Shown here: positions 9,650-50,953 of the stretch, in pieces
Layout of the letters: each line of letters begins with the position of its first letter
Position numbering within the stretch: the stretch's first letter is position 1
The notes under the pieces: generated by a model
What the model was told of the DNA's origin: nothing
The model's input: only the letters and a program-made list of their open reading frames with translations
The model's database searches: none
Program-made: the position numbers and the translations under genes
Source: Candidatus Woesebacteria bacterium RIFCSPHIGHO2_01_FULL_38_10
GTDB taxonomy: Bacteria; Patescibacteriota; Microgenomatia; UBA8517
Assembly (NCBI GenBank): GCA_001792215.1
Contig: MGGC01000040.1
Location: 3,653-61,070 of the forward strand
Length of the DNA stretch: 57,418 bases
Direction: 5' to 3'

Positions 9650-9967
9650 TTATGGTTTTCCTGCAAATGAATCTCCTGGAGTCAAATAAATCACTTTTTC
9701 TAATCTTTCAAAACCCAAATCTTTCGCTTTAGCTTCTACTTCTGCCAGTGATGTTTTCTGAACCAACTCTCTTGAAAGTTTTTTATTTTCACTTGACAAC
9801 CTCTCCTCCTCCTTTTCATACAAAGAAAGGGTTGTCCCTAAGGTTACAGCTTTTATTGTCAAAACTAGCTCAAAAATGATAAACAAACCCAAAAATAGGA
9901 TGCTTATATTTTTTTTGTCTAGGATCTTTTTCTTTTGAGAAATTACCTTTTTACGTCTGTCTCTCAT
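9650..9967 (-). CDS. ftsL: FtsL-like cell-division protein (single TM + coiled coil)
   Basis: 105 aa. TM segment ISILFLGLFIIFELVLTIKAV followed by a heptad-like charged region. Sits at the canonical position between rsmH and ftsI. ATGA overlap with rsmH. Confidence 0.5.
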   Translation of the reverse strand: MRDRRKKVISQKKKILDKKNISILFLGLFIIFELVLTIKAVTLGTTLSLYEKEEERLSSENKKLSRELVQKTSLAEVEAKAKDLGFERLEKVIYLTPGDSFAGKP

Positions 9968-11040
9968 ATTTTTTCCAAAACGCGCATTTTAGCGCTTCTT
10001 GATCTGGGGTTTCTGAACATTTCCTCAGTTGAGGCTAATATTGGTTTTCTGGTAATAATTTTCCCTCCACTTTCTTTAAAAAATTCTTTAACGATTCTAT
10101 CCTCCCCTGAGTGAAAACTAATCACGATAAGGCAACCCCCTTTCCTCAAAACCTTTAAGGCTTTGGGCAAAGCTTCTTTCAAATTTTCAAGTTCACTATT
10201 TACCACAATCCTCAATGCAAGCATGGAAAGTGTAACTGGATGTAATTTTTCTCCCTTCTTGCTTGCGAAAAGTTCCAAAAAATCTGAAACTACCTTAAAT
10301 TTCTTTACCTTTCTTTTCTCAGCAACCATTCGCGCAAGATTCCTTGCTTTACCTTCAGGCAAAACGATCTTAAAAAGTTGAAACAACTTTTTCTGATCTA
10401 GGCTGTTAAGCAAATCGGATGCCCTAATCTTTTGAGTTTTCTTATCCATCCTCATATCAAGCTCATCTTTAGTATTTTTGAATGAAAAACCTCTTGACTC
10501 GGAGGCCAGTTGATGACTGGAAACTCCAAGATCAAAAAGAATTCCGTAAACTTCTCTAAAACCATACTTTTCCAAAATACTATCCAGGTCTTTAAAATTA
10601 CCATGAATAGCCACAAAGCGCAGCCTTGCAAAAAGCGGATAAATCTTATTCGTTCGAGAATGCCTCGCGGCAAGACGCGAGGATGAATGAGCGAACGAAC
10701 TTGCCGAAGGATACTTCGTAGCAGAGCTACGAACCAGTTCATCGTCTGAATCGTTTAAGGTAAGCTCTGGTAAAGACCGAGATACTTTCCTTAACCTCTC
10801 TTCAGCAATCCTCAAAGAATCGCAATCTGTCTCTATTCCTAAAACAAAACCACCTTCTTGGATAATCTTCTCGCTATGCCCACCCAATCCCAAGGTGGCA
10901 TCAATAATCAGGGGGTGTACTTTTAAATGTGCAAATTTCTTTAGCTTAAGCGCTTCAACTACTTCACGAACCATAACAGGATCATGAAGATTTTGACTTC
11001 TCAGTCTGTTTTCCATTTTGATTCTTTTTCTCTTCTTCAA
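9964..11040 (-). CDS. rsmH: 16S rRNA (cytosine1402-N4)-methyltransferase RsmH with a ~50-aa internal insertion
   Basis: Motifs HDPVMVREV, IIDATLGLGGHS, ILFDLGVSSHQL, SFHSGEDRIVK. The track start is TTG at 11040; the ATG at 11016 (MENRLRS) is more likely. Confidence 0.85.
   Translation of the reverse strand: MKKRKRIKMENRLRSQNLHDPVMVREVVEALKLKKFAHLKVHPLIIDATLGLGGHSEKIIQEGGFVLGIETDCDSLRIAEERLRKVSRSLPELTLNDSDDELVRSSATKYPSASSFAHSSSRLAARHSRTNKIYPLFARLRFVAIHGNFKDLDSILEKYGFREVYGILFDLGVSSHQLASESRGFSFKNTKDELDMRMDKKTQKIRASDLLNSLDQKKLFQLFKIVLPEGKARNLARMVAEKRKVKKFKVVSDFLELFASKKGEKLHPVTLSMLALRIVVNSELENLKEALPKALKVLRKGGCLIVISFHSGEDRIVKEFFKESGGKIITRKPILASTEEMFRNPRSRSAKMRVLEKI
10649..10733. repeat. GC-rich nested/double hairpin inside the rsmH reading frame
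   Basis: TTCGTTCG (10649..10656) pairs with CGAACGAA (10692..10699) and encloses CCTCGCG (10663..10669)/CGCGAGG (10676..10682). A second hairpin is TTCGTAGC (10715..10722)/GCTACGAA (10726..10733). Confidence 0.6.
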
Positions 11041-11110
11041 CGCTATTGATAAATTCCATCATTGACTTAAGCCTTTCTTCCATCTGAATTTTATTGAATT
11101 TAATCATTTA

Positions 11111-12518: not shown

Positions 12519-13805
12519 TCAACCTACAAGTTTATTGTGGAAGTAGTTTTCCAAATTGTCAACTGATACTCTTTCCTGTCTTGTCGTATCCCGATCACGA
12601 ACCGTGACTGTATTATCATCCAAAGTCTGAAAATCGATAGTCACACACCATGGCGTTCCAATCTCGTCCTGAGAAAAATAACGCTTACCGATATTTCCCC
12701 GATCATCCCAAGCAACATAAAAATTTCGGCGAAGTTCAGCAAAAATTTTTCTTGCTTTTTCTACAAGCTTTTTATTATTTGCCAAAAGAGGAAAAACCGC
12801 CAATTTGTAAGGTGAAAGTTTAGGATGTAACTTAAGTATTTTCCTATCCTTATCTTCAGAATAAGCATCAATTAGGAAAAAAAGTAGACTTCTATCAACT
12901 CCACCCGAGGTCTCAATTACCCAAGGTGTATACTCTTCTCCTGTCTTAGGATCTTTATAGATTAGCTTATGGCGTGACAAATCCCAATCACCCCGATAAT
13001 GAACCCCTTCAAACTCTTTCCAGCCAAAAGAAGATTTATATTCTATATCTTCGGCTTTCCGGGCATAATGAGCTTTTTCACTGACAGCATGTTCCCGAAA
13101 TCTTAAATTCACTTTTTTAATACCCAGACCAACATACCAATTCATTCTTTGCTCTTTCCAATATTCAAATACCCTCTCTACCTCTTTTTCTTCTGGTTTG
13201 ATAAAGTACTCCAACTCCATCTGTTCAAATTCCCTACTTCTAAATGTAAAGTTGCCTGGTGTTATCTCATTTCTAAATGCTTTACCTATTTGAGCAATAC
13301 CGAAAGGAATTTTTATTCTTGTTGAATAAACAATATTCTGGAAGTTTACAAACACACCCTGAGTAATCTCACCGCGAAGATAAGCCTTTTGTTTCGGTTC
13401 TGTTACTCCAAGAAACACTTCTGTCATCAAATTAAACAACTTTGATTCTGTCCATTCTATTATTTCATCTTTATGACTTTCTTTGTGTTCTTCAATTGCT
13501 TCCTTATTGTCGGCTCTTACTCTTTGGTGGCAAACCTTACATTCAACCAAGGGGTCCGTGAATGAATCTAAGTGGCCCGAGGCCTTCCAAACTTCGGGGT
13601 TCATGATTATGGAAGCATCAATTCCGACAACATCATTCCGATTATAAACCATTGTTCTCCACCACTCATGCTTGATATTATTTTTCAGCTCAACACCCAA
13701 AGGTCCATAATCCCAAAAACCTTGTATCCCTCCGTAAATCTCACTACCAGGAAAAATAAATCCCCGCCGCTTGGCCAAAGAGGTTATTTTCTCCATCAAA
13801 TCCAT
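12519..13805 (-). CDS. glyQS: Glycine--tRNA ligase (dimeric class II GlyQS type)
   Basis: Motifs RRGFIFPGSEIYGG, FRNEITP, GGVDRS. The track ORF extends to 13874, but the ATGs at 13805 and 13796 match the usual N-terminus (MEKITSLAKRRGF). Confidence 0.9.
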   Translation of the reverse strand: MDLMEKITSLAKRRGFIFPGSEIYGGIQGFWDYGPLGVELKNNIKHEWWRTMVYNRNDVVGIDASIIMNPEVWKASGHLDSFTDPLVECKVCHQRVRADNKEAIEEHKESHKDEIIEWTESKLFNLMTEVFLGVTEPKQKAYLRGEITQGVFVNFQNIVYSTRIKIPFGIAQIGKAFRNEITPGNFTFRSREFEQMELEYFIKPEEKEVERVFEYWKEQRMNWYVGLGIKKVNLRFREHAVSEKAHYARKAEDIEYKSSFGWKEFEGVHYRGDWDLSRHKLIYKDPKTGEEYTPWVIETSGGVDRSLLFFLIDAYSEDKDRKILKLHPKLSPYKLAVFPLLANNKKLVEKARKIFAELRRNFYVAWDDRGNIGKRYFSQDEIGTPWCVTIDFQTLDDNTVTVRDRDTTRQERVSVDNLENYFHNKLVG

Positions 13806-13876
13806 AATGACTTGATTATATACCCAATTTAATTGACTTTGTAAGTTTTGTACGGGACCAGTACTTTTTAGCACTA

Positions 13877-13914
13877 TCCACCCCCAGGGTGGATTAGATA
13901 CGCCACCTCAGGGT
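13877..13914. repeat. Partial copy (A) of the ~55-nt hairpin repeat family 2
   Basis: CCACCCccaGGGTGGattagatacgCCACCTCAGGG. Shares the CCACCC..GGTGG hairpin and the tacgNCACCTCAGG arm with 19968..20022 and 36605..36660. Confidence 0.5.
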
Positions 13915-13919
13915 ACTCA

Positions 13920-15023
13920 TTAATCCTTGCCGCTTTCAAGTTCGGGTAAATCAAGTCCCTTAATTTGAAGCGCTGATGTACCAATTCGCCCCTGAATACT
14001 GCCAACAACGTTAGCTGTTGAATTTACCAGACGACGAATCTGTCCTTCACGAGCTTTCCACATCCGTTCAAAAGCTATTCTTTCTTTAGCAACCTGCTCC
14101 TGCATTTCTCTATAAACCTCAACTAAAGCCTCTAACTGTTGTCTAAACTCATGAGAAGTTACATATTCATAAAGATAATCCTTCTTCTCTCCCTTGTGCA
14201 CTGAAAGAGCCTTTTGAAAACCTATGTCAAGTAAATTTTTTCTCAAAAGAGTGGCTAAAGGAATAATTAAAGAAAAATTGACAATCCAAACTCCGTCTTT
14301 TAAACCAAAACCATTCTCGATTCCTTTGGGAAGGGTGGAAGTGACAATTACCGGAATATTGGCTTTTTCGCCCCTTAAATCCTCTTTTAACTTGCTAATC
14401 CATAAGTCTTTCCAGGCTTTAGTTCTTTTCGCCTCCCAGAGAATAACTCCACAAACGTATCCTTTTGGACTTTTTACAATCTGCCTTATATCAGCTCCCT
14501 TGACACCTTTCCCCACCGGTTCTAATTCATCATTGGGAAATGAAGTGCGCAAAGTTTCCTCTAAATCAAGTTCTAAGACTTCTCCTTGAAGCTGCTGAGA
14601 ACCAATTTTTGATTTTCGCAAAGCCTCTTCCAGTTGAAGCTGGAGTTGAGAAATTTTCTTGTCCTTCTCAAGATCTTTCAACCGATGTTCTTCTGCTGCC
14701 TGTTTAAAAACTTCCTCTTCCAGTTTCTTCTTTTCCTGATCAATTTGTCTTTGAAGCTCAAGCTTCAACTCTTTTTCCCTATCCTCAATCTTTCTTCTTT
14801 CTGCACGCAGTCTTAATTCCTGTTCCCTGAATTCATCAACTTTTTTATCTCTCTCAACCAACTGCCTTCTCAAATCCTCAATCACTTCACTTGTCTTTTT
14901 ATTTAACTCAGTTTTAATTCTTGCTTCCAATTTTTTCCTGAGGGTATCTTCAACCTGATGTCTAAGAACTTCATCAATCTCTATCTGCTTCCCACAATGA
15001 GGACACCTAAAAGTCTCTACCAT
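13920..15023 (-). CDS. DUF2130-like protein: N-terminal zinc ribbon, long coiled coil, C-terminal PD-(D/E)xK-like domain
   Basis: 367 aa. CPHCGK at the N-terminus, ~150 aa of E/K/R/L-rich heptads, then GADIRQIV...GVILWEAKRTK (D...E-x-K pattern). Confidence 0.65.
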   Translation of the reverse strand: MVETFRCPHCGKQIEIDEVLRHQVEDTLRKKLEARIKTELNKKTSEVIEDLRRQLVERDKKVDEFREQELRLRAERRKIEDREKELKLELQRQIDQEKKKLEEEVFKQAAEEHRLKDLEKDKKISQLQLQLEEALRKSKIGSQQLQGEVLELDLEETLRTSFPNDELEPVGKGVKGADIRQIVKSPKGYVCGVILWEAKRTKAWKDLWISKLKEDLRGEKANIPVIVTSTLPKGIENGFGLKDGVWIVNFSLIIPLATLLRKNLLDIGFQKALSVHKGEKKDYLYEYVTSHEFRQQLEALVEVYREMQEQVAKERIAFERMWKAREGQIRRLVNSTANVVGSIQGRIGTSALQIKGLDLPELESGKD

Positions 15024-18335: not shown

Positions 18336-19460
18336 TCAGAGATACTCTTTTTCACTCTTTTGTTTTAGTTGTTCAACAATTTTTTTTACATTTTGGGCCT
18401 TACTCTTAGAGCAGATCAATAAAGCATCGTCCGTATCAACAACAATAATATTATCAACATCGATTATTGCAATGAGCCTTCCGTCTGTATGAATCAGTGC
18501 GTCTGAAGTATCAAGATTAATGACTTCACCACCGGGAGCATCACCATCTATAACAACATTACCGTACTCGTCCTTAGTCAAATTCTTCCAAACCTCATTC
18601 CAATCCCCTATATCCGTCCATTCATAGTCAGCAACAAGCATTAAGAAGTTTTTCGCTTTTTCAGATACTGCGTAATCGACAGAAATCTTTGGCATCAGGT
18701 TGTAATACTTTTCCAACACTTGTTTCTCTTTTTTTGTCCCAATAAATTTGCCTATCATCATCAAATTTTTATATATTTCAGGCTGGTAGTTTGAAAGAGC
18801 TTGCAGAAACGAATCCGCCTTCCAAACATATTGGTTTGCATTCCAGAAATAATTTCCCGAAGAGGTATACCTTTTGGCTTGAGGTAAAGGAGGTTTCTCA
18901 ACAAATTTGTCTAACTTGTAAACAATCTTTCCTTCGACTGTCTTTATTTTCTTTCCCCTTCTGATATGCCCCATACCGGTATGGGGATAACTGGGCCGCA
19001 CCCCGACTGCAACCAAAAAATTCCCCTCGTAGGCCACACAAGATGCGGCGTACATTATTTTTTTATAATTTTTTTCAGGACGGATAAAATGATCAGAAGC
19101 TGCGTTAATTATTACAGCCTGATCATCCTTTTTATAAATATGCAAAGCCCCCAATCCATGAGCCGGGGCTGTATCTCTGCGAGCCGGCTCGACAATAATA
19201 TGATTTTTGGGTACAGACGGAAGAAGGCGTTTTATCTCTATCTCGTATTTTATCGTTGCGGTTGATATAAAAATTCTCTCCCAAGGCAAAAACTTTCTCA
19301 GCCGTTCAATAGTAATCTCAAGAAGAGTTTTATTTCCGAAAAGTTTCAGAAATTGTTTTGGGGTTTTATCTCTTGATCTGGGCCAAAGCCTTGTCCCTCC
19401 ACCACCAGCCATTACTAAAGCGTATAAATGATCTTTATAACTTTTTGCGGACATTTCCAA
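18336..19460 (-). CDS. manC: Mannose-1-phosphate guanylyltransferase-like NDP-sugar pyrophosphorylase
   Basis: 374 aa. N-terminal ALVMAGGGGTRLWPRSRDKTPKQFL. Confidence 0.8.
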   Translation of the reverse strand: MEMSAKSYKDHLYALVMAGGGGTRLWPRSRDKTPKQFLKLFGNKTLLEITIERLRKFLPWERIFISTATIKYEIEIKRLLPSVPKNHIIVEPARRDTAPAHGLGALHIYKKDDQAVIINAASDHFIRPEKNYKKIMYAASCVAYEGNFLVAVGVRPSYPHTGMGHIRRGKKIKTVEGKIVYKLDKFVEKPPLPQAKRYTSSGNYFWNANQYVWKADSFLQALSNYQPEIYKNLMMIGKFIGTKKEKQVLEKYYNLMPKISVDYAVSEKAKNFLMLVADYEWTDIGDWNEVWKNLTKDEYGNVVIDGDAPGGEVINLDTSDALIHTDGRLIAIIDVDNIIVVDTDDALLICSKSKAQNVKKIVEQLKQKSEKEYL

Positions 19461-20631
19461 TAACCTTTAAAAATTCTTTCTTAAACTTTTTTTCTGTAAA
19501 CCTTTTTGCATTTCTAAGTAATTCATTTCTACTAAATTTCAGTTTTTCAAACCGGTTAATTGCAGATATTAAACTTTTTTTATCCTGTTTGTCAAAAAAT
19601 ATACCCGTTTTAGTGTCGATTACAGTATCAAGTGCGCCACCCACTCCGTATGCTATCACCGAACACCCTGCAGCCTGTGCTTCAACAGAAACCAGACCAA
19701 AATCCTCTTCCTGCGGAAAAATTAAAGCGCGCGCATTCTGATAGTAACCTGCGAGTTCGCTATCTGTCAAATTCTTCACAAATTTAATATTTCTGCCTGC
19801 CATCTTTTTTAATCTTCCCTCTTCTTTTCCGGAACCGACAATAATTAACCTATGTCCAAGTTCATTAAGCGCTTCAATCACCAAATCCACTCTTTTATAC
19901 TTCACAAGCCGGGAGACAACCAGATAAAACCCTTTACTTTTACTATCCCTTCTCCTTCTCATTCTTCCCTGATGTGTCAAGGACATTCCACCCTTAGAGT
20001 GGAATAGGTACGACACCTCAGGATTCTGCCGATCTCTATCCACGGAACTATCTCCAAACACAGACCTTTTGAAACTAAGTGGTGGAAATATCAGTTTTAC
20101 CTCCCTGGCGTAATACTTCCTAATTCTTTCTCTAACCGCTAACGAAATTGCAACCATTTCATCCGGTCTTTGGGCAGCAATTAAATCCCAATGTTTAAGA
20201 TAGAAAACCAGCGGTTTTGTTACAGCCCTAAAAACCGCATTTTTAAAATAAAGCTCATAATGGCTCCATAGGTAACGCGTAGGCGTAAGACAGTAGCAAA
20301 CATGTAAAGTTCCCGGTTTTGTAATTACCCCCTTTGCCGCCTCCGAGGTCACAGAAATTACCAAATCATAACCAGAAAAATCAAACGATTCGAAAGCCAA
20401 AGACATCAAAGGCGCCAGTAATTCATGCCTGTCCCGCAGAAATGAAAACTTTTGTAAAAAACTGGGAATTACTTCGGGGAAAACATTCGCCCAAGGAGCT
20501 TTTTCTCGAGAATAGACAGAAGTATAAAGAGGCGCATCTGGAAACATTTCATGAAGCATTAAAAGAACTCTTTCCGCTCCACCCCATTTATTTACCCGAT
20601 CATAAACCAGAGCAACTTTATCATATTGCAT
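19435..20631 (-). CDS. GT4 (group 1) glycosyltransferase carrying a repeat-derived inter-domain insertion
   Basis: 398 aa. Has GGAERV near the N-terminus and the C-terminal EEDFGLVSVEAQAAG motif. The linker DRDRQNPEVSYLFHSKGGMSLTHQGRMRRRRDSKSK is encoded by and around repeat copy B. Confidence 0.8.
   Translation of the reverse strand: MQYDKVALVYDRVNKWGGAERVLLMLHEMFPDAPLYTSVYSREKAPWANVFPEVIPSFLQKFSFLRDRHELLAPLMSLAFESFDFSGYDLVISVTSEAAKGVITKPGTLHVCYCLTPTRYLWSHYELYFKNAVFRAVTKPLVFYLKHWDLIAAQRPDEMVAISLAVRERIRKYYAREVKLIFPPLSFKRSVFGDSSVDRDRQNPEVSYLFHSKGGMSLTHQGRMRRRRDSKSKGFYLVVSRLVKYKRVDLVIEALNELGHRLIIVGSGKEEGRLKKMAGRNIKFVKNLTDSELAGYYQNARALIFPQEEDFGLVSVEAQAAGCSVIAYGVGGALDTVIDTKTGIFFDKQDKKSLISAINRFEKLKFSRNELLRNAKRFTEKKFKKEFLKVIGNVRKKL
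19968..20022. repeat. Hairpin repeat family 2, copy B, inside a coding sequence
   Basis: CCTGATGTGTC...CCACCCttagaGTGG...GACACCTCAGG. The outer arms are complementary with 1 mismatch. It aligns as the reverse complement of 36605..36660. Confidence 0.65.
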
Positions 20632-35517: not shown

Positions 35518-36585
35518 TTATAATTCTTTAAATAAAGCATCATATTTTTCAACTATTTTATCCAACGAAAATTTCTCAGCTTGCTTGCGCGGCCTAACAT
35601 TCCAGTCCGTGCATAATGCCTTTTGAACTGCTTCTGAACATCTTTCAACATCAGTCGGGTCAGTCAAAATTCCTGCGTCCCTTACGATTTGAGCTCTTAT
35701 CGGATCATTATTAGCAACAACCGGCAGATTTGTTGCCATTGCCTCCAAAAGCACCATTTCAAATGAATATTCTGGTCTTGAGGCGGATGTAAAAACATCG
35801 ACTGACCGATAGACAGAGGGCATCTCATCAAACTTAAACTTTCGCAATAAAAACCGCTTTCCCAAAACTTTTTTTCCAAGATTGTCCAACTTTTCTCTTT
35901 CAATCCCGTCACCTACCACCAAAAGACTTGCTTTTTTTAATTTTGAAACTGCTTTAATTATAAGATCAACCCTTTTCGTCTTTTCCAGAGCAGAAACACA
36001 AAGAATAATAGGTTTTGCAAGTTTAATTACTTTCTTTACTCCTTGAGGCTTAAATTTATCAGAATCGACTCCGTTTGGTATATAAACAGTTTTAACAAAC
36101 GGGTTAATTTTCTTTGCCCAATTTTTTACCTGGGTCGACAAAGCAACAAAACAATCAGGAAAAGTCCACAGATTATTGGCATCATCCCAACCGATCCCGG
36201 CGTGCCCAACAATAATCATCTTTTTTCTTTGAAGCCAAGTTAATAACCTCATGAAAGCTGGTTGCCAACCACCGTTTATTGGAATTAAAAGGTCATATTT
36301 TCCTTTAAACAAAACCGGAATTACTTTTAGACTAAAAAGTGCAATCAACCTGCTCTTGTAATCGATAAACAACCTTCGTGTCAGAATCCCTGGTGAATCT
36401 TTTTTTTTCCAATTTATAGAAATATTTGTAGAAACGACTTTATATTCTTTGCTCACTCCTGATGGCCCGTTTTGAAAAACGCAGACTTCATGACTTTTAG
36501 ACAATCTGCTAGCAAATTGAAGAGTCCAGTTTTCTGCTCCACGTTCCAGGTACCCGCAATAAAAAGATAATATGGCGATCTTCAT
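35518..36585 (-). CDS. GT4 glycosyltransferase
   Basis: 355 aa. C-terminal SFEMVLLEAMATNLPVVAN motif. Confidence 0.8.
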   Translation of the reverse strand: MKIAILSFYCGYLERGAENWTLQFASRLSKSHEVCVFQNGPSGVSKEYKVVSTNISINWKKKDSPGILTRRLFIDYKSRLIALFSLKVIPVLFKGKYDLLIPINGGWQPAFMRLLTWLQRKKMIIVGHAGIGWDDANNLWTFPDCFVALSTQVKNWAKKINPFVKTVYIPNGVDSDKFKPQGVKKVIKLAKPIILCVSALEKTKRVDLIIKAVSKLKKASLLVVGDGIEREKLDNLGKKVLGKRFLLRKFKFDEMPSVYRSVDVFTSASRPEYSFEMVLLEAMATNLPVVANNDPIRAQIVRDAGILTDPTDVERCSEAVQKALCTDWNVRPRKQAEKFSLDKIVEKYDALFKEL

Positions 36586-36604: not shown

Positions 36605-36660
36605 CCCTAGGGTGTCGTATCTTTTCCACCCTTGGGGTGGTTTGTCCTTGACACCTCAGG
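36605..36660. repeat. Hairpin repeat family 2, copy C (intergenic)
   Basis: CCCTAGGGTGTCgtatcttttCCACCCttgGGGTGGtttgtccttGACACCTCAGG. It is the reverse-complement homologue of 19968..20022. Confidence 0.65.
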
Positions 36661-36663
36661 TCT

Positions 36664-37365
36664 TCAGTCCACAAACCTATACTTAATTAACGTCCACAAT
36701 GCAATAAACCCATCTCTCCACGATATCTTTTTGCCATCACTATAACTTCGGGGTTTAACTTCAATAGGAATTTCACAAATTCTCTCGCCCGCTTTTAACA
36801 ACTTTGCGGTTATTTCTGGTTCAAATTCAAACCGCTTGGCTTTGATCTCTATGTCATCAAGAACAACTCTCTTAAAAACTTTATAACAGGTTTCCATATC
36901 GGTTATACTTGATCCAAATAATAAATTTGTTATGAAAGTTAAAGTCTTGTTTCCAATGTAATGAGTAATCAAAGGAGTCTTTCCCTTTCCGAATAACCTA
37001 AAAGGATAATTTACCAATCTACTTCCGTATACAACCTTTGTTTTCCCTTCAACTATCGGTTTTAACAACCGAGCATAGTCAGAAGGATTGTATTCCAAAT
37101 CTGCGTCCTGAATCAGGACAATATCGCCAGATGAATTTTTAATTCCGTTTCTAACGGCCGACCCTTTGCCTTTATTGACTTTATGGCTGATAAGCTTAAT
37201 GCCTTTTTGTTTCTTAAGAATCTTGGCGGTTCTATCACTAGATGCGTCATCAACCACGACTATTTCCTTCTCGACACTTACAAGCTTTTCTTTTTTAACC
37301 CTATTAATAACCTCGCCAACAGTCTTTTCCTCGTTATAAACCGGTATAATTATGGATAATTTCAT
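36664..37365 (-). CDS. GT2 polyprenyl-phosphate glycosyltransferase (Dpm1/GtrB-like)
   Basis: MKLSIIIPVYNEE, VVVDDASSDRT, IQDADLEY. The ATG at 37365 forms an ATGA overlap with the upstream methyltransferase stop. The track start at 37416 adds 17 unlikely residues. Confidence 0.85.
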   Translation of the reverse strand: MKLSIIIPVYNEEKTVGEVINRVKKEKLVSVEKEIVVVDDASSDRTAKILKKQKGIKLISHKVNKGKGSAVRNGIKNSSGDIVLIQDADLEYNPSDYARLLKPIVEGKTKVVYGSRLVNYPFRLFGKGKTPLITHYIGNKTLTFITNLLFGSSITDMETCYKVFKRVVLDDIEIKAKRFEFEPEITAKLLKAGERICEIPIEVKPRSYSDGKKISWRDGFIALWTLIKYRFVD

Positions 37366-38060
37366 TTCTTTTCCCCCACTGCCAAAACTGAAAGTCCCAT
37401 GGGTAGTTTGATACACTCTTCCAGAAAAAGGAAGGGCTTTGAGATAACATTAAAAATCCTTAATTGGTTTTGGCTGATAACTTTCTTCCTAAACACCTTA
37501 GAACTCAAAAACCAGCCCCAAAGCCCTATAAAATTCAAATAACGTATTAAGCTTATCCTAAAACCTGTTTTTCCTAATTTAACCTTAAGATCTTTTTTTG
37601 AATATCGCGTAATATGTCCCAACTCTCGGTCAAGGGTTCCAAAAACCCATTGGTGGGCAGGTACCAATAATAAAAGTTTTCCCCCTTTTTTAAGTAAAGC
37701 GTAAGTATTTTTTAATGCCTTTGCATCATCTTTTACATGCTCTAAAACATTAAGACAAATTATGCAATCAAATCTTTTCCTTTTTCCAAAAAAATACTCT
37801 CCTTTTGCTATATCTCCATAACCAACCGATACATCTTTTGCAAATCTTTTCGTCAACTTCTTTAGGTAATATCTGTCATAATCTATAGCCGTAAGAGCGC
37901 CCCTTTTTTTAAGTAAACAAGTAAAATTCCCGATCCCTGACCCCACTTCGAGCATCTCGCCTCCAAGATATGAATAAATTAATGAAAAAAGCCACTGGTT
38001 ATACCAACCAGCTTCTCTCATTATCCCCAGAGTATATTCGCCCGGCGAATCCATTTCCAA
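37362..38060 (-). CDS. Class I SAM-dependent methyltransferase
   Basis: 232 aa. Motif I MLEVGSGIGNFT, then DCIICLNVLEHV. Confidence 0.8.
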   Translation of the reverse strand: MEMDSPGEYTLGIMREAGWYNQWLFSLIYSYLGGEMLEVGSGIGNFTCLLKKRGALTAIDYDRYYLKKLTKRFAKDVSVGYGDIAKGEYFFGKRKRFDCIICLNVLEHVKDDAKALKNTYALLKKGGKLLLLVPAHQWVFGTLDRELGHITRYSKKDLKVKLGKTGFRISLIRYLNFIGLWGWFLSSKVFRKKVISQNQLRIFNVISKPFLFLEECIKLPMGLSVLAVGEKK

Positions 38061-47516: not shown

Positions 47517-47596
47517 ACAAGTTTCGTAGACACCTCTAAATCATCTCCGAGGAGTCTCTTCGGGCCACCATCCGAGGTGGTAAGTACAAAACTTGT
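47517..47596 (+). mobile_element. MITE-like repeat, 80-nt copy R3
   Basis: ACAAGTTTC...atctccgaggagtctcttcgggccaccatccgaggtgg...AAAACTTGT. The core matches R1/R4. It lies between the 779-aa gene stop and the methyltransferase start. Confidence 0.7.
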
Positions 47597-50762: not shown

Positions 50763-50953
50763 ACAAGTTTCGCAGACAGGCTTGCCTGCGCAAGACAAGC
50801 TTAAACCACCTTCGAGATGTGCGAAGCCAGGTACCATACAGTACTTGGCGAAGTACTCCTCGGAGGTGGATGGATTTACCAACTGACATTATCTCGGAGG
50901 AGTCCCTTCGGGCCACCATCTGAGATGGCTATTAAGGGAAGTGTGAAACTTGT
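50763..50953 (+). mobile_element. MITE-like repeat, 191-nt full-length copy R4
   Basis: Termini ACAAGTTTC (50763..50771) and GAAACTTGT (50945..50953). Flanked by the direct repeat ACCAGT (50756..50761 and 50954..50959). Its internal modules are shared with R1, R2 and R3. Confidence 0.8.

Follow-up and report, generated by a model that had tools for sequence, protein, structure and literature searches.

A REP-like nested palindrome inside a GT4 glycosyltransferase gene of a Candidatus Woesebacteria bacterium and its probable link to a clade of RAYT-like Y1 transposases

The stretch of DNA analysed here (hereafter the window: 57,418 nt of contig MGGC01000040.1 of Candidatus Woesebacteria bacterium RIFCSPHIGHO2_01_FULL_38_10, C40:3653-61070) contains an intact gene for a glycosyltransferase of family GT4 whose open reading frame (ORF) is occupied in part by a nested palindrome resembling the repetitive extragenic palindromic (REP) sequences of other bacteria. 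The genome, from a tiny groundwater bacterium, comprises 1.02 Mb in 41 contigs and is 93% complete. A preliminary description, made from the letters of the window, had placed this palindrome at three sites, and all three were found where it had put them. They are given below with their scores under R1, a covariance model built from alignment A2.

19435..20631, minus strand: intact GT4-family (GT-B fold) glycosyltransferase, 398 aa; Pfam matches PF00534 (9e-28) and PF13439
19968..20022, unstranded: full-length REP doublet (nested palindrome) of 55 nt within the GT4 ORF; R1 58.8 bits (plus strand) and 52.5 bits (minus strand)
36606..36660, unstranded: full-length intergenic copy; R1 50.7 bits on one strand and 50.0 on the other
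13874..13915, plus strand: half copy (inner hairpin, spacer and tail, with one arm); R1 60.3 bits

The sequence of the copy at 19968-20022 is CCTGATGTGTCAAGGACATTCCACCCTTAGAGTGGAATAGGTACGACACCTCAGG. Its outer arms and inner hairpin are as first described, and RNA folding of the GT4 palindrome reproduces the nested stem, a 121-nt stretch folding at -35 kcal/mol. The second copy, which had been called intergenic and inverted, is both: it lies 3 nt past the stop codon of ORF 36664-37416 (minus strand), with ORF 35518-36585 lying 20 nt further on, and a repeat finder reports it as inverted and 82% complementary to the GT4 copy over 55 nt. The third, initially reported as a partial copy at 13877-13914, does consist of the inner hairpin and a single arm, and it fills the short gap between the minus-strand ORFs 12519-13874 and 13920-15023, with the stop of the upstream gene 4 nt away. 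A degenerate 36-nt pattern allowing up to three mismatches matches exactly these three sites of the window (0.00 expected, with no match in 100 shuffles). The three copies are genuine and chance is excluded. A scan of the whole window at Rfam gathering thresholds gave no match.

Alignment of the copies shows that the basic unit of the family is not the 55-mer but a half unit made of a hairpin, a spacer and a tail, and most copies are half units. The hairpin has 8 bp (TTCCACCC-TTG-GGGTGGAA), the spacer is about 9 nt long and of the types TAGATAC or TAGCCTT, and the conserved tail reads GACACCTCAGGRTA, also written GACACCTCAGG(R)TA. A full doublet (55-57 nt, 19 codons) is two units with one common hairpin, an inverted tail lying on the hairpin's other side; tail and inverted tail pair as an outer stem, hence the nested palindrome. 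There are three doublets (GT4, UvrB and window 36606) and a fourth that is decayed, and copy lengths range from 40 to 57 nt. One arm type reads GTC-GTA[T/C/G]-CTA-hairpin on the top strand, with a tag-like GTAK 3 nt off the hairpin foot, and the other reads CAAGG/CAAGC; the conserved block is the CCTGAGGTG tail. The hairpin is conserved as a structure: over 69 distinct matches from about 25 genomes, 90.6% of hairpin cells are paired, compensatory changes occur in six of the eight pairs, and double-change cells number 66 versus 24.6 in shuffles (none of 500 reached 66), with slid controls near zero.

A census of the 41 contigs by BLAST, nhmmer and R1 found many more loci than three (10 strong copies, and some seven others that are weak or decayed), which agrees with the suggestion that the REP-like hairpins form a dispersed family.

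C32:33028, C33:8190, C14:7523-7583, C40:17526, C40:23617-23677, C19:3133, C37:18065, C14:8504, C40:40255-40315 and C26:10161: strong copies, 48-62 bits
C38:1463, C38:2203, C26:22204, C37:39358, C21:19023, C27:26727 and C8:11042: weaker copies

All-versus-all BLAST of 800-nt flanks detected no homology between copies past about 55 nt; the repeat therefore does not form the terminus of some larger element. No consistent target-site duplication was found at the three full copies. Duplication-like pairs are present at the GT4 copy (ATTCT, offset by 2 nt) and at the UvrB copy (GAGCAAT, offset by 8 nt), and the intergenic full copy has no such pair at its flanks.

In the GT4 gene the palindrome (57 nt) reads in the minus-strand frame as PEVSYLFHSKGGMSLTHQG, residues 205-223, with no stop. 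The Pfam matches (a PF13439-type N domain, residues 16-175, and PF00534, Glycos_transf_1, residues 231-377) lie on either side of the insert, and these limits together with the open 398-aa ORF agree with the original view that the copy sits in the linker between the two Rossmann domains and leaves the frame unbroken. All 40 orthologues from relatives align as two blocks (about 5-189 and 231-392 of the query) and have a total of 355-385 aa versus 398; their linkers have 10-25 residues versus 47 here, and the repeat sequence is missing from every one, so that a true insertion is present. In the AlphaFold model (mean predicted local distance difference test, pLDDT, 86.5) both domains exceed 90, whereas residues 193-232 fall below 50 and have no secondary structure. 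The split alignment of the orthologues and the low pLDDT of the linker thus identify the insert as a 19-residue addition to a disordered linker, whose ends are ambiguous by 1-2 nt because the best GT4 homologue is only 62% identical. In an alignment of 51 sequences the invariant columns, including the E309/E317 motif, are retained and the catalytic motif is intact. The similarity among the copies had been thought possibly coincidental should only three loci exist and the orthologues carry an equivalent linker; there are more loci, and the linker is shorter in all 40. One GT4 orthologue (L002, G028:C1) has in the same linker an unrelated insert of about 186 nt, beginning at the codon for VIYPPVGIM, with 58% GC and a long hairpin (-65 kcal/mol) and encoding GPAARSSRPTSSPPTVEQSGRVAGARWDSLRSRHPSS. 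This permissive site has thus been struck independently by a second family of hairpin elements.

Four copies in the genome itself are coding (GT4, UvrB and two PMT-type glycosyltransferases), and others are found in frame in relatives.

C14:6244-8364: UvrB; 19 REP codons, PQGSKAIPPLGWNRYDTSG, directly ahead of IVEQ
C27:26243-28006: PMT-type glycosyltransferase; decayed copy, NPPIGWIRYAP, in a loop beside a transmembrane helix
C26:21670-23334: PMT-type glycosyltransferase; SVNLFHLPGGRSESG, in a loop beside a transmembrane helix
Relatives: in-frame copies in UvrC (G027), in two Mur ligases (G035, G033) and in another PMT-like protein
L050 (G027) 1482-1542 and G033:C3:605939-605980: DRG/Obg-type GTPase, same site in two genera of one family
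L026 (G022) 1470-1545 and L041 (G048) 1470-1545: CapA/PGA_cap in two genera, same codon position and frame
G033:C3:528892-528932 and 507562-507602: C-terminal tails of GatA (amidase) and a 1005-aa membrane protein

These coding copies were inserted into genes that are otherwise intact, at places where the product is variable, disordered or forms a loop. In every copy the frame is open throughout and the insert length is a multiple of three, for which a length of 57 nt has a prior of one in three. Two of the six frames of the consensus are stop-free, versus about 2.5 by our own arithmetic for a random 55-mer, so no special adaptation to coding is apparent. The left arm of the UvrB copy has lost a TGA which the consensus shows in this frame. 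In relatives the baseline UvrB loop reads ...SMAKGN-VVEQLLRPTG, and some lineages have an expansion of 12-16 residues. At least eight relatives (L086-L094) carry expansions of 5-25 residues with differing sequences in the loop before RPTG, for example YRLRTTDYSKKSAVVRSRLAVDG in G034, and these may be decayed remnants of earlier insertions. The segment is absent from the true orthologues of the C27 PMT gene, and a PMT paralogue from another family of the order has a well-preserved copy of its own at the same alignment column, which points to independent hits in one permissive loop. The repeat peptides of the two GTPases are STPEVQVQFHLGGGIDTTRRE and STEIHLSGGSDTTRMEK. The CapA copies have diverged, one hairpin pair being altered on both sides (C-G to A-T), and they represent either an old inherited insertion that keeps its DNA hairpin or two insertions at one site. 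In GatA and in the 1005-aa membrane protein of G033 the repeat supplies the final 10-20 codons and the stop, and so it rewrites C-termini besides internal loops.

About a quarter of the copies at classifiable sites are coding (4 of about 17 in the own genome, 7 of the 26 best matches elsewhere, and 3-6 of 16 in the 240-kb stretch of the relative G033 discussed below). Set against the 88% coding density of the latter, coding copies are depleted about 3.5-fold and are far from excluded. Among the intergenic copies, six of nine lie 0-31 nt past a stop codon in one orientation. The idea that this genome tolerates structured insertions in coding regions is strengthened by the four coding copies, though the insertion in rsmH that had been cited along with GT4 is a different, GC-rich element. 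That gene (window 9964-11058, minus strand) has a Ser/Ala/Arg-rich stretch of about 50 residues (…SRSLPELTLNDSDDELVRSSATKYPSASSFAHSSSRLAARHSRTNKIYPLF…) between conserved blocks, and R1 has no match in it, which assigns it to another element family. A different hairpin-rich repeat family occurs in the window at 212-269, 47540-47581 and 50876-50933, with pairs that are 91% and 90% complementary and a sequence unrelated to that of the GT4 palindrome.

A comparison set of 61 related genomes was searched with R1 and with the Pfam model of Y1 transposases, PF01797. R1 matches occur in 23 of these relatives, belonging to 19 genera, and very unevenly (0 to 34 per genome). The repeat is present in 21 of the 40 genomes that have Y1 genes versus 2 of the 21 that have none (Fisher p=9e-4). 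Apart from the C38 locus of the genome itself, an R1 match and a Y1 gene lie no more than about 300 nt apart at no fewer than 15 loci of 14 genomes; counting C38, 16 adjacent genes are observed versus 1.3 expected (Poisson P=8e-13). An unfiltered re-search gave the layout [REP +]-gene-[REP -] irrespective of the strand of the gene, with both sides detected in at least 11 loci. The first description of the palindrome as REP-like holds. It had missed, though, that relatives of the element flank Y1 genes resembling those of REP-associated tyrosine transposases (RAYTs), which makes this a REP/RAYT system and not an unexplained hairpin. The genome itself has four matches to Y1_Tnp (PF01797), three of them intact genes of about 225-245 aa.

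C38:1503-2186: Y1 gene flanked by inverted units with their tails facing the gene; R1 32.5 and 11.9 bits
C8:6492-7169: Y1 gene with flanks CCACC-N5-GGTG/TCTTRGCTT/GACACCTSS, their likeness to the unit seen by eye only
C27:20130-20864: Y1 gene without R1-type flanks

The flanks of the C38 gene have the architecture CCCAC-loop-GTGGG, about 7 nt, then GACAC-N3-GGGA, and by score the C38 enzyme is the best candidate for the cognate transposase. The Y1 tree divides into two deep clades (support 97/95), and all 16 flanked genes belong to the one that holds the C38 and C8 genes, with none in the C27-like clade. When R1 was applied to the 31 best-scoring PF01797 loci it matched only at C38 and, weakly, at one other, because the flanked genes form the other, lower-scoring clade. 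The C27-like clade (proteins of about 230-245 aa; C27:20130-20864 and nine relatives among L061-L081) is common in the bacterial family and has no R1-type flanks. At one RAYT-like locus of G033 (L119, G033:C3:446200-448700) the stop-to-stop frame of the gene crosses the upstream repeat, in frame as ...PLRWNSIDTSG..., and the true start is probably a later MPGR.

The enzyme of the flanked clade has about 225 aa, including a helical C-terminal extension of about 75 aa, and both the HUH motif (PNH-x-H) and the catalytic Tyr of RYIHxNP are invariant in the Y1 alignment. In NCBIfam the best match, and almost the only one, scores 35-50 bits and is to NF047646 (REP-associated tyrosine transposase). 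The C38 protein was modelled by AlphaFold with a pLDDT of 94.7, and a fold search with this model returned at the top 4ER8, the complex of the E. coli RAYT with its REP hairpin (E=1.8e-6, TM 0.67 normalised to the target), followed by the TnpA proteins of IS608 and ISDra2 at E of about 1e-3. A phmmer search of the PDB sequences with the C38 enzyme found nothing, and 4ER8 surfaced by the fold search only. The C38-type enzyme looks like a distant, longer relative of RAYTs.

Strand preference was assessed in a repeat-rich relative over a stretch of 240 kb with 88% coding density and positive GC skew throughout (G033:C3:440-680 kb). All 14 copies there that are neither palindromic nor flanking a RAYT lie on one strand, five of them beside or within genes of the opposite strand. 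In the own genome the orientation relative to local GC skew is the same in all seven clean half units, the decayed C27 copy being the sole exception, which brings the combined bias to 21 of 21. In every case it is the G-rich strand that reads 5'-(TA)CCTGAGGTG-GTAT-CTA-hairpin-3', and a strand rich in G is by convention taken to be the lagging-strand template. Transposases of the IS608 type, which are Y1 enzymes, act on the lagging-strand template (PMC6006769), and the bias would reflect a mechanism of single-strand transposition.

Taken together, these data make it likely that the palindrome is a non-autonomous element of the REP type (or of the REPIN type, its inverted doublet) mobilised by a Y1 clade of the RAYT kind, and that the coding copies that are tolerated are neutral. 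The family would probably be moved by the clade of HUH/Y1 single-strand-DNA transposases of about 225 aa, the enzyme binding the hairpin on one DNA strand, the lagging-strand template, and cutting and rejoining it during replication, so that no target-site duplication would be left. Insertion could take place anywhere, with selection purging the copies that break genes; the surviving copies are either intergenic, typically 0-31 nt after a stop, or in frame and stop-free in tolerant loops. The 19 extra residues of GT4 would most likely be simply translated and functionally neutral.

Several points weigh against this explanation. The Y1 proteins, at their 35-50 bits, stay short of the 80-bit cut-off that NCBIfam sets for RAYTs, and the GTAG/CGTC tag expected at the hairpin foot is absent. 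In the own assembly, 93% complete, no RAYT gene has near-identical members of the dispersed subfamily on its two sides: the flanks at C38 score 32.5 and 11.9 bits against 48-62 for the dispersed copies, and those at C8 match the element by eye only. In addition, the hairpin covariation was measured on an alignment made to fit the model, GC skew and gene orientation are entangled in these genomes, it is from the open frame only that the insert is taken to be translated, and no empty-site allele was found in a close relative, the best GT4 identity among 5.8 billion proteins being 62%.

The repeat could instead be a host regulatory signal (a stabiliser of transcript ends, a terminator or a protein site) selected at the 3' ends of genes and no longer, or never, mobile, in which case the copies within genes would have arisen by accident during an old burst. 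The position of most intergenic copies just past a stop in one orientation speaks for it, such placement having been taken as a sign of an RNA-level function (PMC3733652), and so do the compensatory changes that keep the hairpin. Yet the orientation of the copies in G033 tracks the replication strand, also beside and inside opposite-strand genes, the same sequence is found within unrelated coding regions, its occurrence among genera is patchy and goes with that of Y1 genes, and a T-run after the hairpin is not seen in the three window copies. We therefore regard a purely regulatory nature as unlikely. A regulatory use is, moreover, compatible with a REP origin, and the REPs of E. coli have both a mobile origin and a regulatory role.

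Less probable still is a classical miniature inverted-repeat transposable element (MITE), the deletion derivative of an insertion sequence (IS) with a DDE transposase, whose outer arms would be terminal inverted repeats and which would move by cut-and-paste with target-site duplications. The outer arms do resemble an 11-bp inverted repeat, but the three full copies have no consistent duplication and the majority of copies are one-arm half units, immobile for a transposase that depends on terminal inverted repeats. No parent IS is visible either, given that likeness between copies ends at about 55 nt; the flanking genes are Y1/HUH and not DDE, and a strand bias of this kind is what single-strand transposition typically gives. 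We give slightly less credence again to the possibility that the GT4 insert is removed from the RNA or the protein, in the manner of an intron or intein, or that GT4 is a pseudogene. Nothing direct favours it, the sole hint being the strong mRNA hairpin of the 121-nt stretch. An open frame and a length in multiples of three in all coding copies, like the loss of the left-arm TGA from the UvrB copy, would be needless were the inserts spliced; features of introns or inteins were not seen, Rfam gave no match, and the catalytic residues of GT4 are intact.

The REP/REPIN element mobilised by a RAYT-kind enzyme thus remains our preferred reading, and in most defining features what is found here is a REP/RAYT system, or "REPtron", from which one classical feature, the GTAG/CGTC tag, is missing. 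A REPtron has inverted REPs around its RAYT gene (PMC6006769), the arrangement seen here around RAYT-like Y1 genes. As in the REP/REPIN-RAYT systems of E. coli (YafM, 4ER8) and Pseudomonas (REPINs) (PMC6006769, PMC3116915), short hairpins are scattered over the genome, either alone or paired as inverted doublets which fold as one larger hairpin, a HUH/Y1 gene with a single domain lies between inverted copies, each clade of enzymes goes with a repeat type of its own, taxa that have the system are distributed patchily, most copies are found a short way downstream of genes, and the predicted fold of the enzyme is nearest to 4ER8. The differences are that the conserved block of this family is a tail of 11-14 nt about 9 nt away from the hairpin rather than a GTAG/CGTC foot tag, that the doublet has one central hairpin and not two, that the enzyme, of about 225 aa with a C-terminal extension, scores below the cut-off and has several paralogues per genome, and that the host is a bacterium of the candidate phyla radiation (CPR; Microgenomates) with a low copy number (about 17). 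A further comparison is with the IS200/IS605 family (IS608, ISDra2), whose Y1 HUH chemistry, recognition of subterminal hairpins on a single strand, lack of target duplication and insertion bias to the lagging-strand template the present system would share. In IS200/IS605 elements, however, the transposase gene lies between the hairpins and the whole moves as a unit, whereas the hairpins of the present family are scattered on their own.

The statement that REP-like elements are normally confined to intergenic DNA, made when the palindrome was first described, is outdated, since both intragenic REPs and Rickettsia palindromic elements (RPEs) have been published (PMC3733652, PMC10969869). Published REPs are mostly found just past stops, and intragenic REPs of the GTAG/CGTC type are in frame, add about 20-30 residues, are over-represented in uvrA/uvrB and have been argued to occupy flexible linkers or loops (Di Nocera, De Gregorio and Rocco 2013, PMC3733652). 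The hosts of the present repeat likewise include UvrB and, in a relative, UvrC. It belongs, however, to another sequence family and phylum, about a quarter of its copies are intragenic, and independent insertions recur in the GT4 linker, the UvrB loop and the loop of the PMT paralogues. RPEs are in-frame palindromic selfish DNA of about 100-150 nt (Ogata et al. 2000, as reviewed in PMC10969869). In that account they too are inserted in frame, the hosts being housekeeping genes that are unrelated to one another, in a reduced genome, and the proteins remain functional, but they are limited to Rickettsia and have no known transposase, unlike the present repeat with its candidate transposase family. 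The repeat behaves in the manner of an RPE, being in frame and tolerated, but membership of the RPEs was rejected on grounds of the different host, the length of 40-57 nt, the lack of an Rfam match and the lack of any sequence relation.

A full-text literature search found no paper joining RAYT or REPIN with Patescibacteria, and a REP/RAYT system in a CPR setting appears to be unpublished. The finding itself is accounted for in full by ordinary terms. A bolder reading, which we hold only tentatively and think rather doubtful, is that in CPR bacteria, with their scant intergenic space, REP/RAYT persists largely inside genes and repeatedly hits the same loops in separate lineages. These would be the interdomain linker of GT-B enzymes, the UvrB loop before RPTG and a periplasmic or cytoplasmic loop of PMT proteins, and some inserts would be long inherited with the hairpin kept by compensation (CapA and the DRG-type GTPase, two genera each). 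If this were true, REP insertion would be a main source of the lineage-specific loop expansions that typify CPR proteins, and the element would have a protected reservoir in its coding copies.

What was an odd palindrome has now become a testable system in which the repeat is defined, a clade of candidate enzymes is at hand and the active strand is predicted, and with it REP/RAYT biology reaches the candidate phyla radiation. For annotators it means that lineage-specific inserts of 10-20 residues in CPR housekeeping proteins can be selfish DNA and not adaptation. The recurrent hits in the same loops also offer a natural map of insertion-tolerant sites in UvrB, in Mur ligases and in GT-B and GT-C glycosyltransferases.

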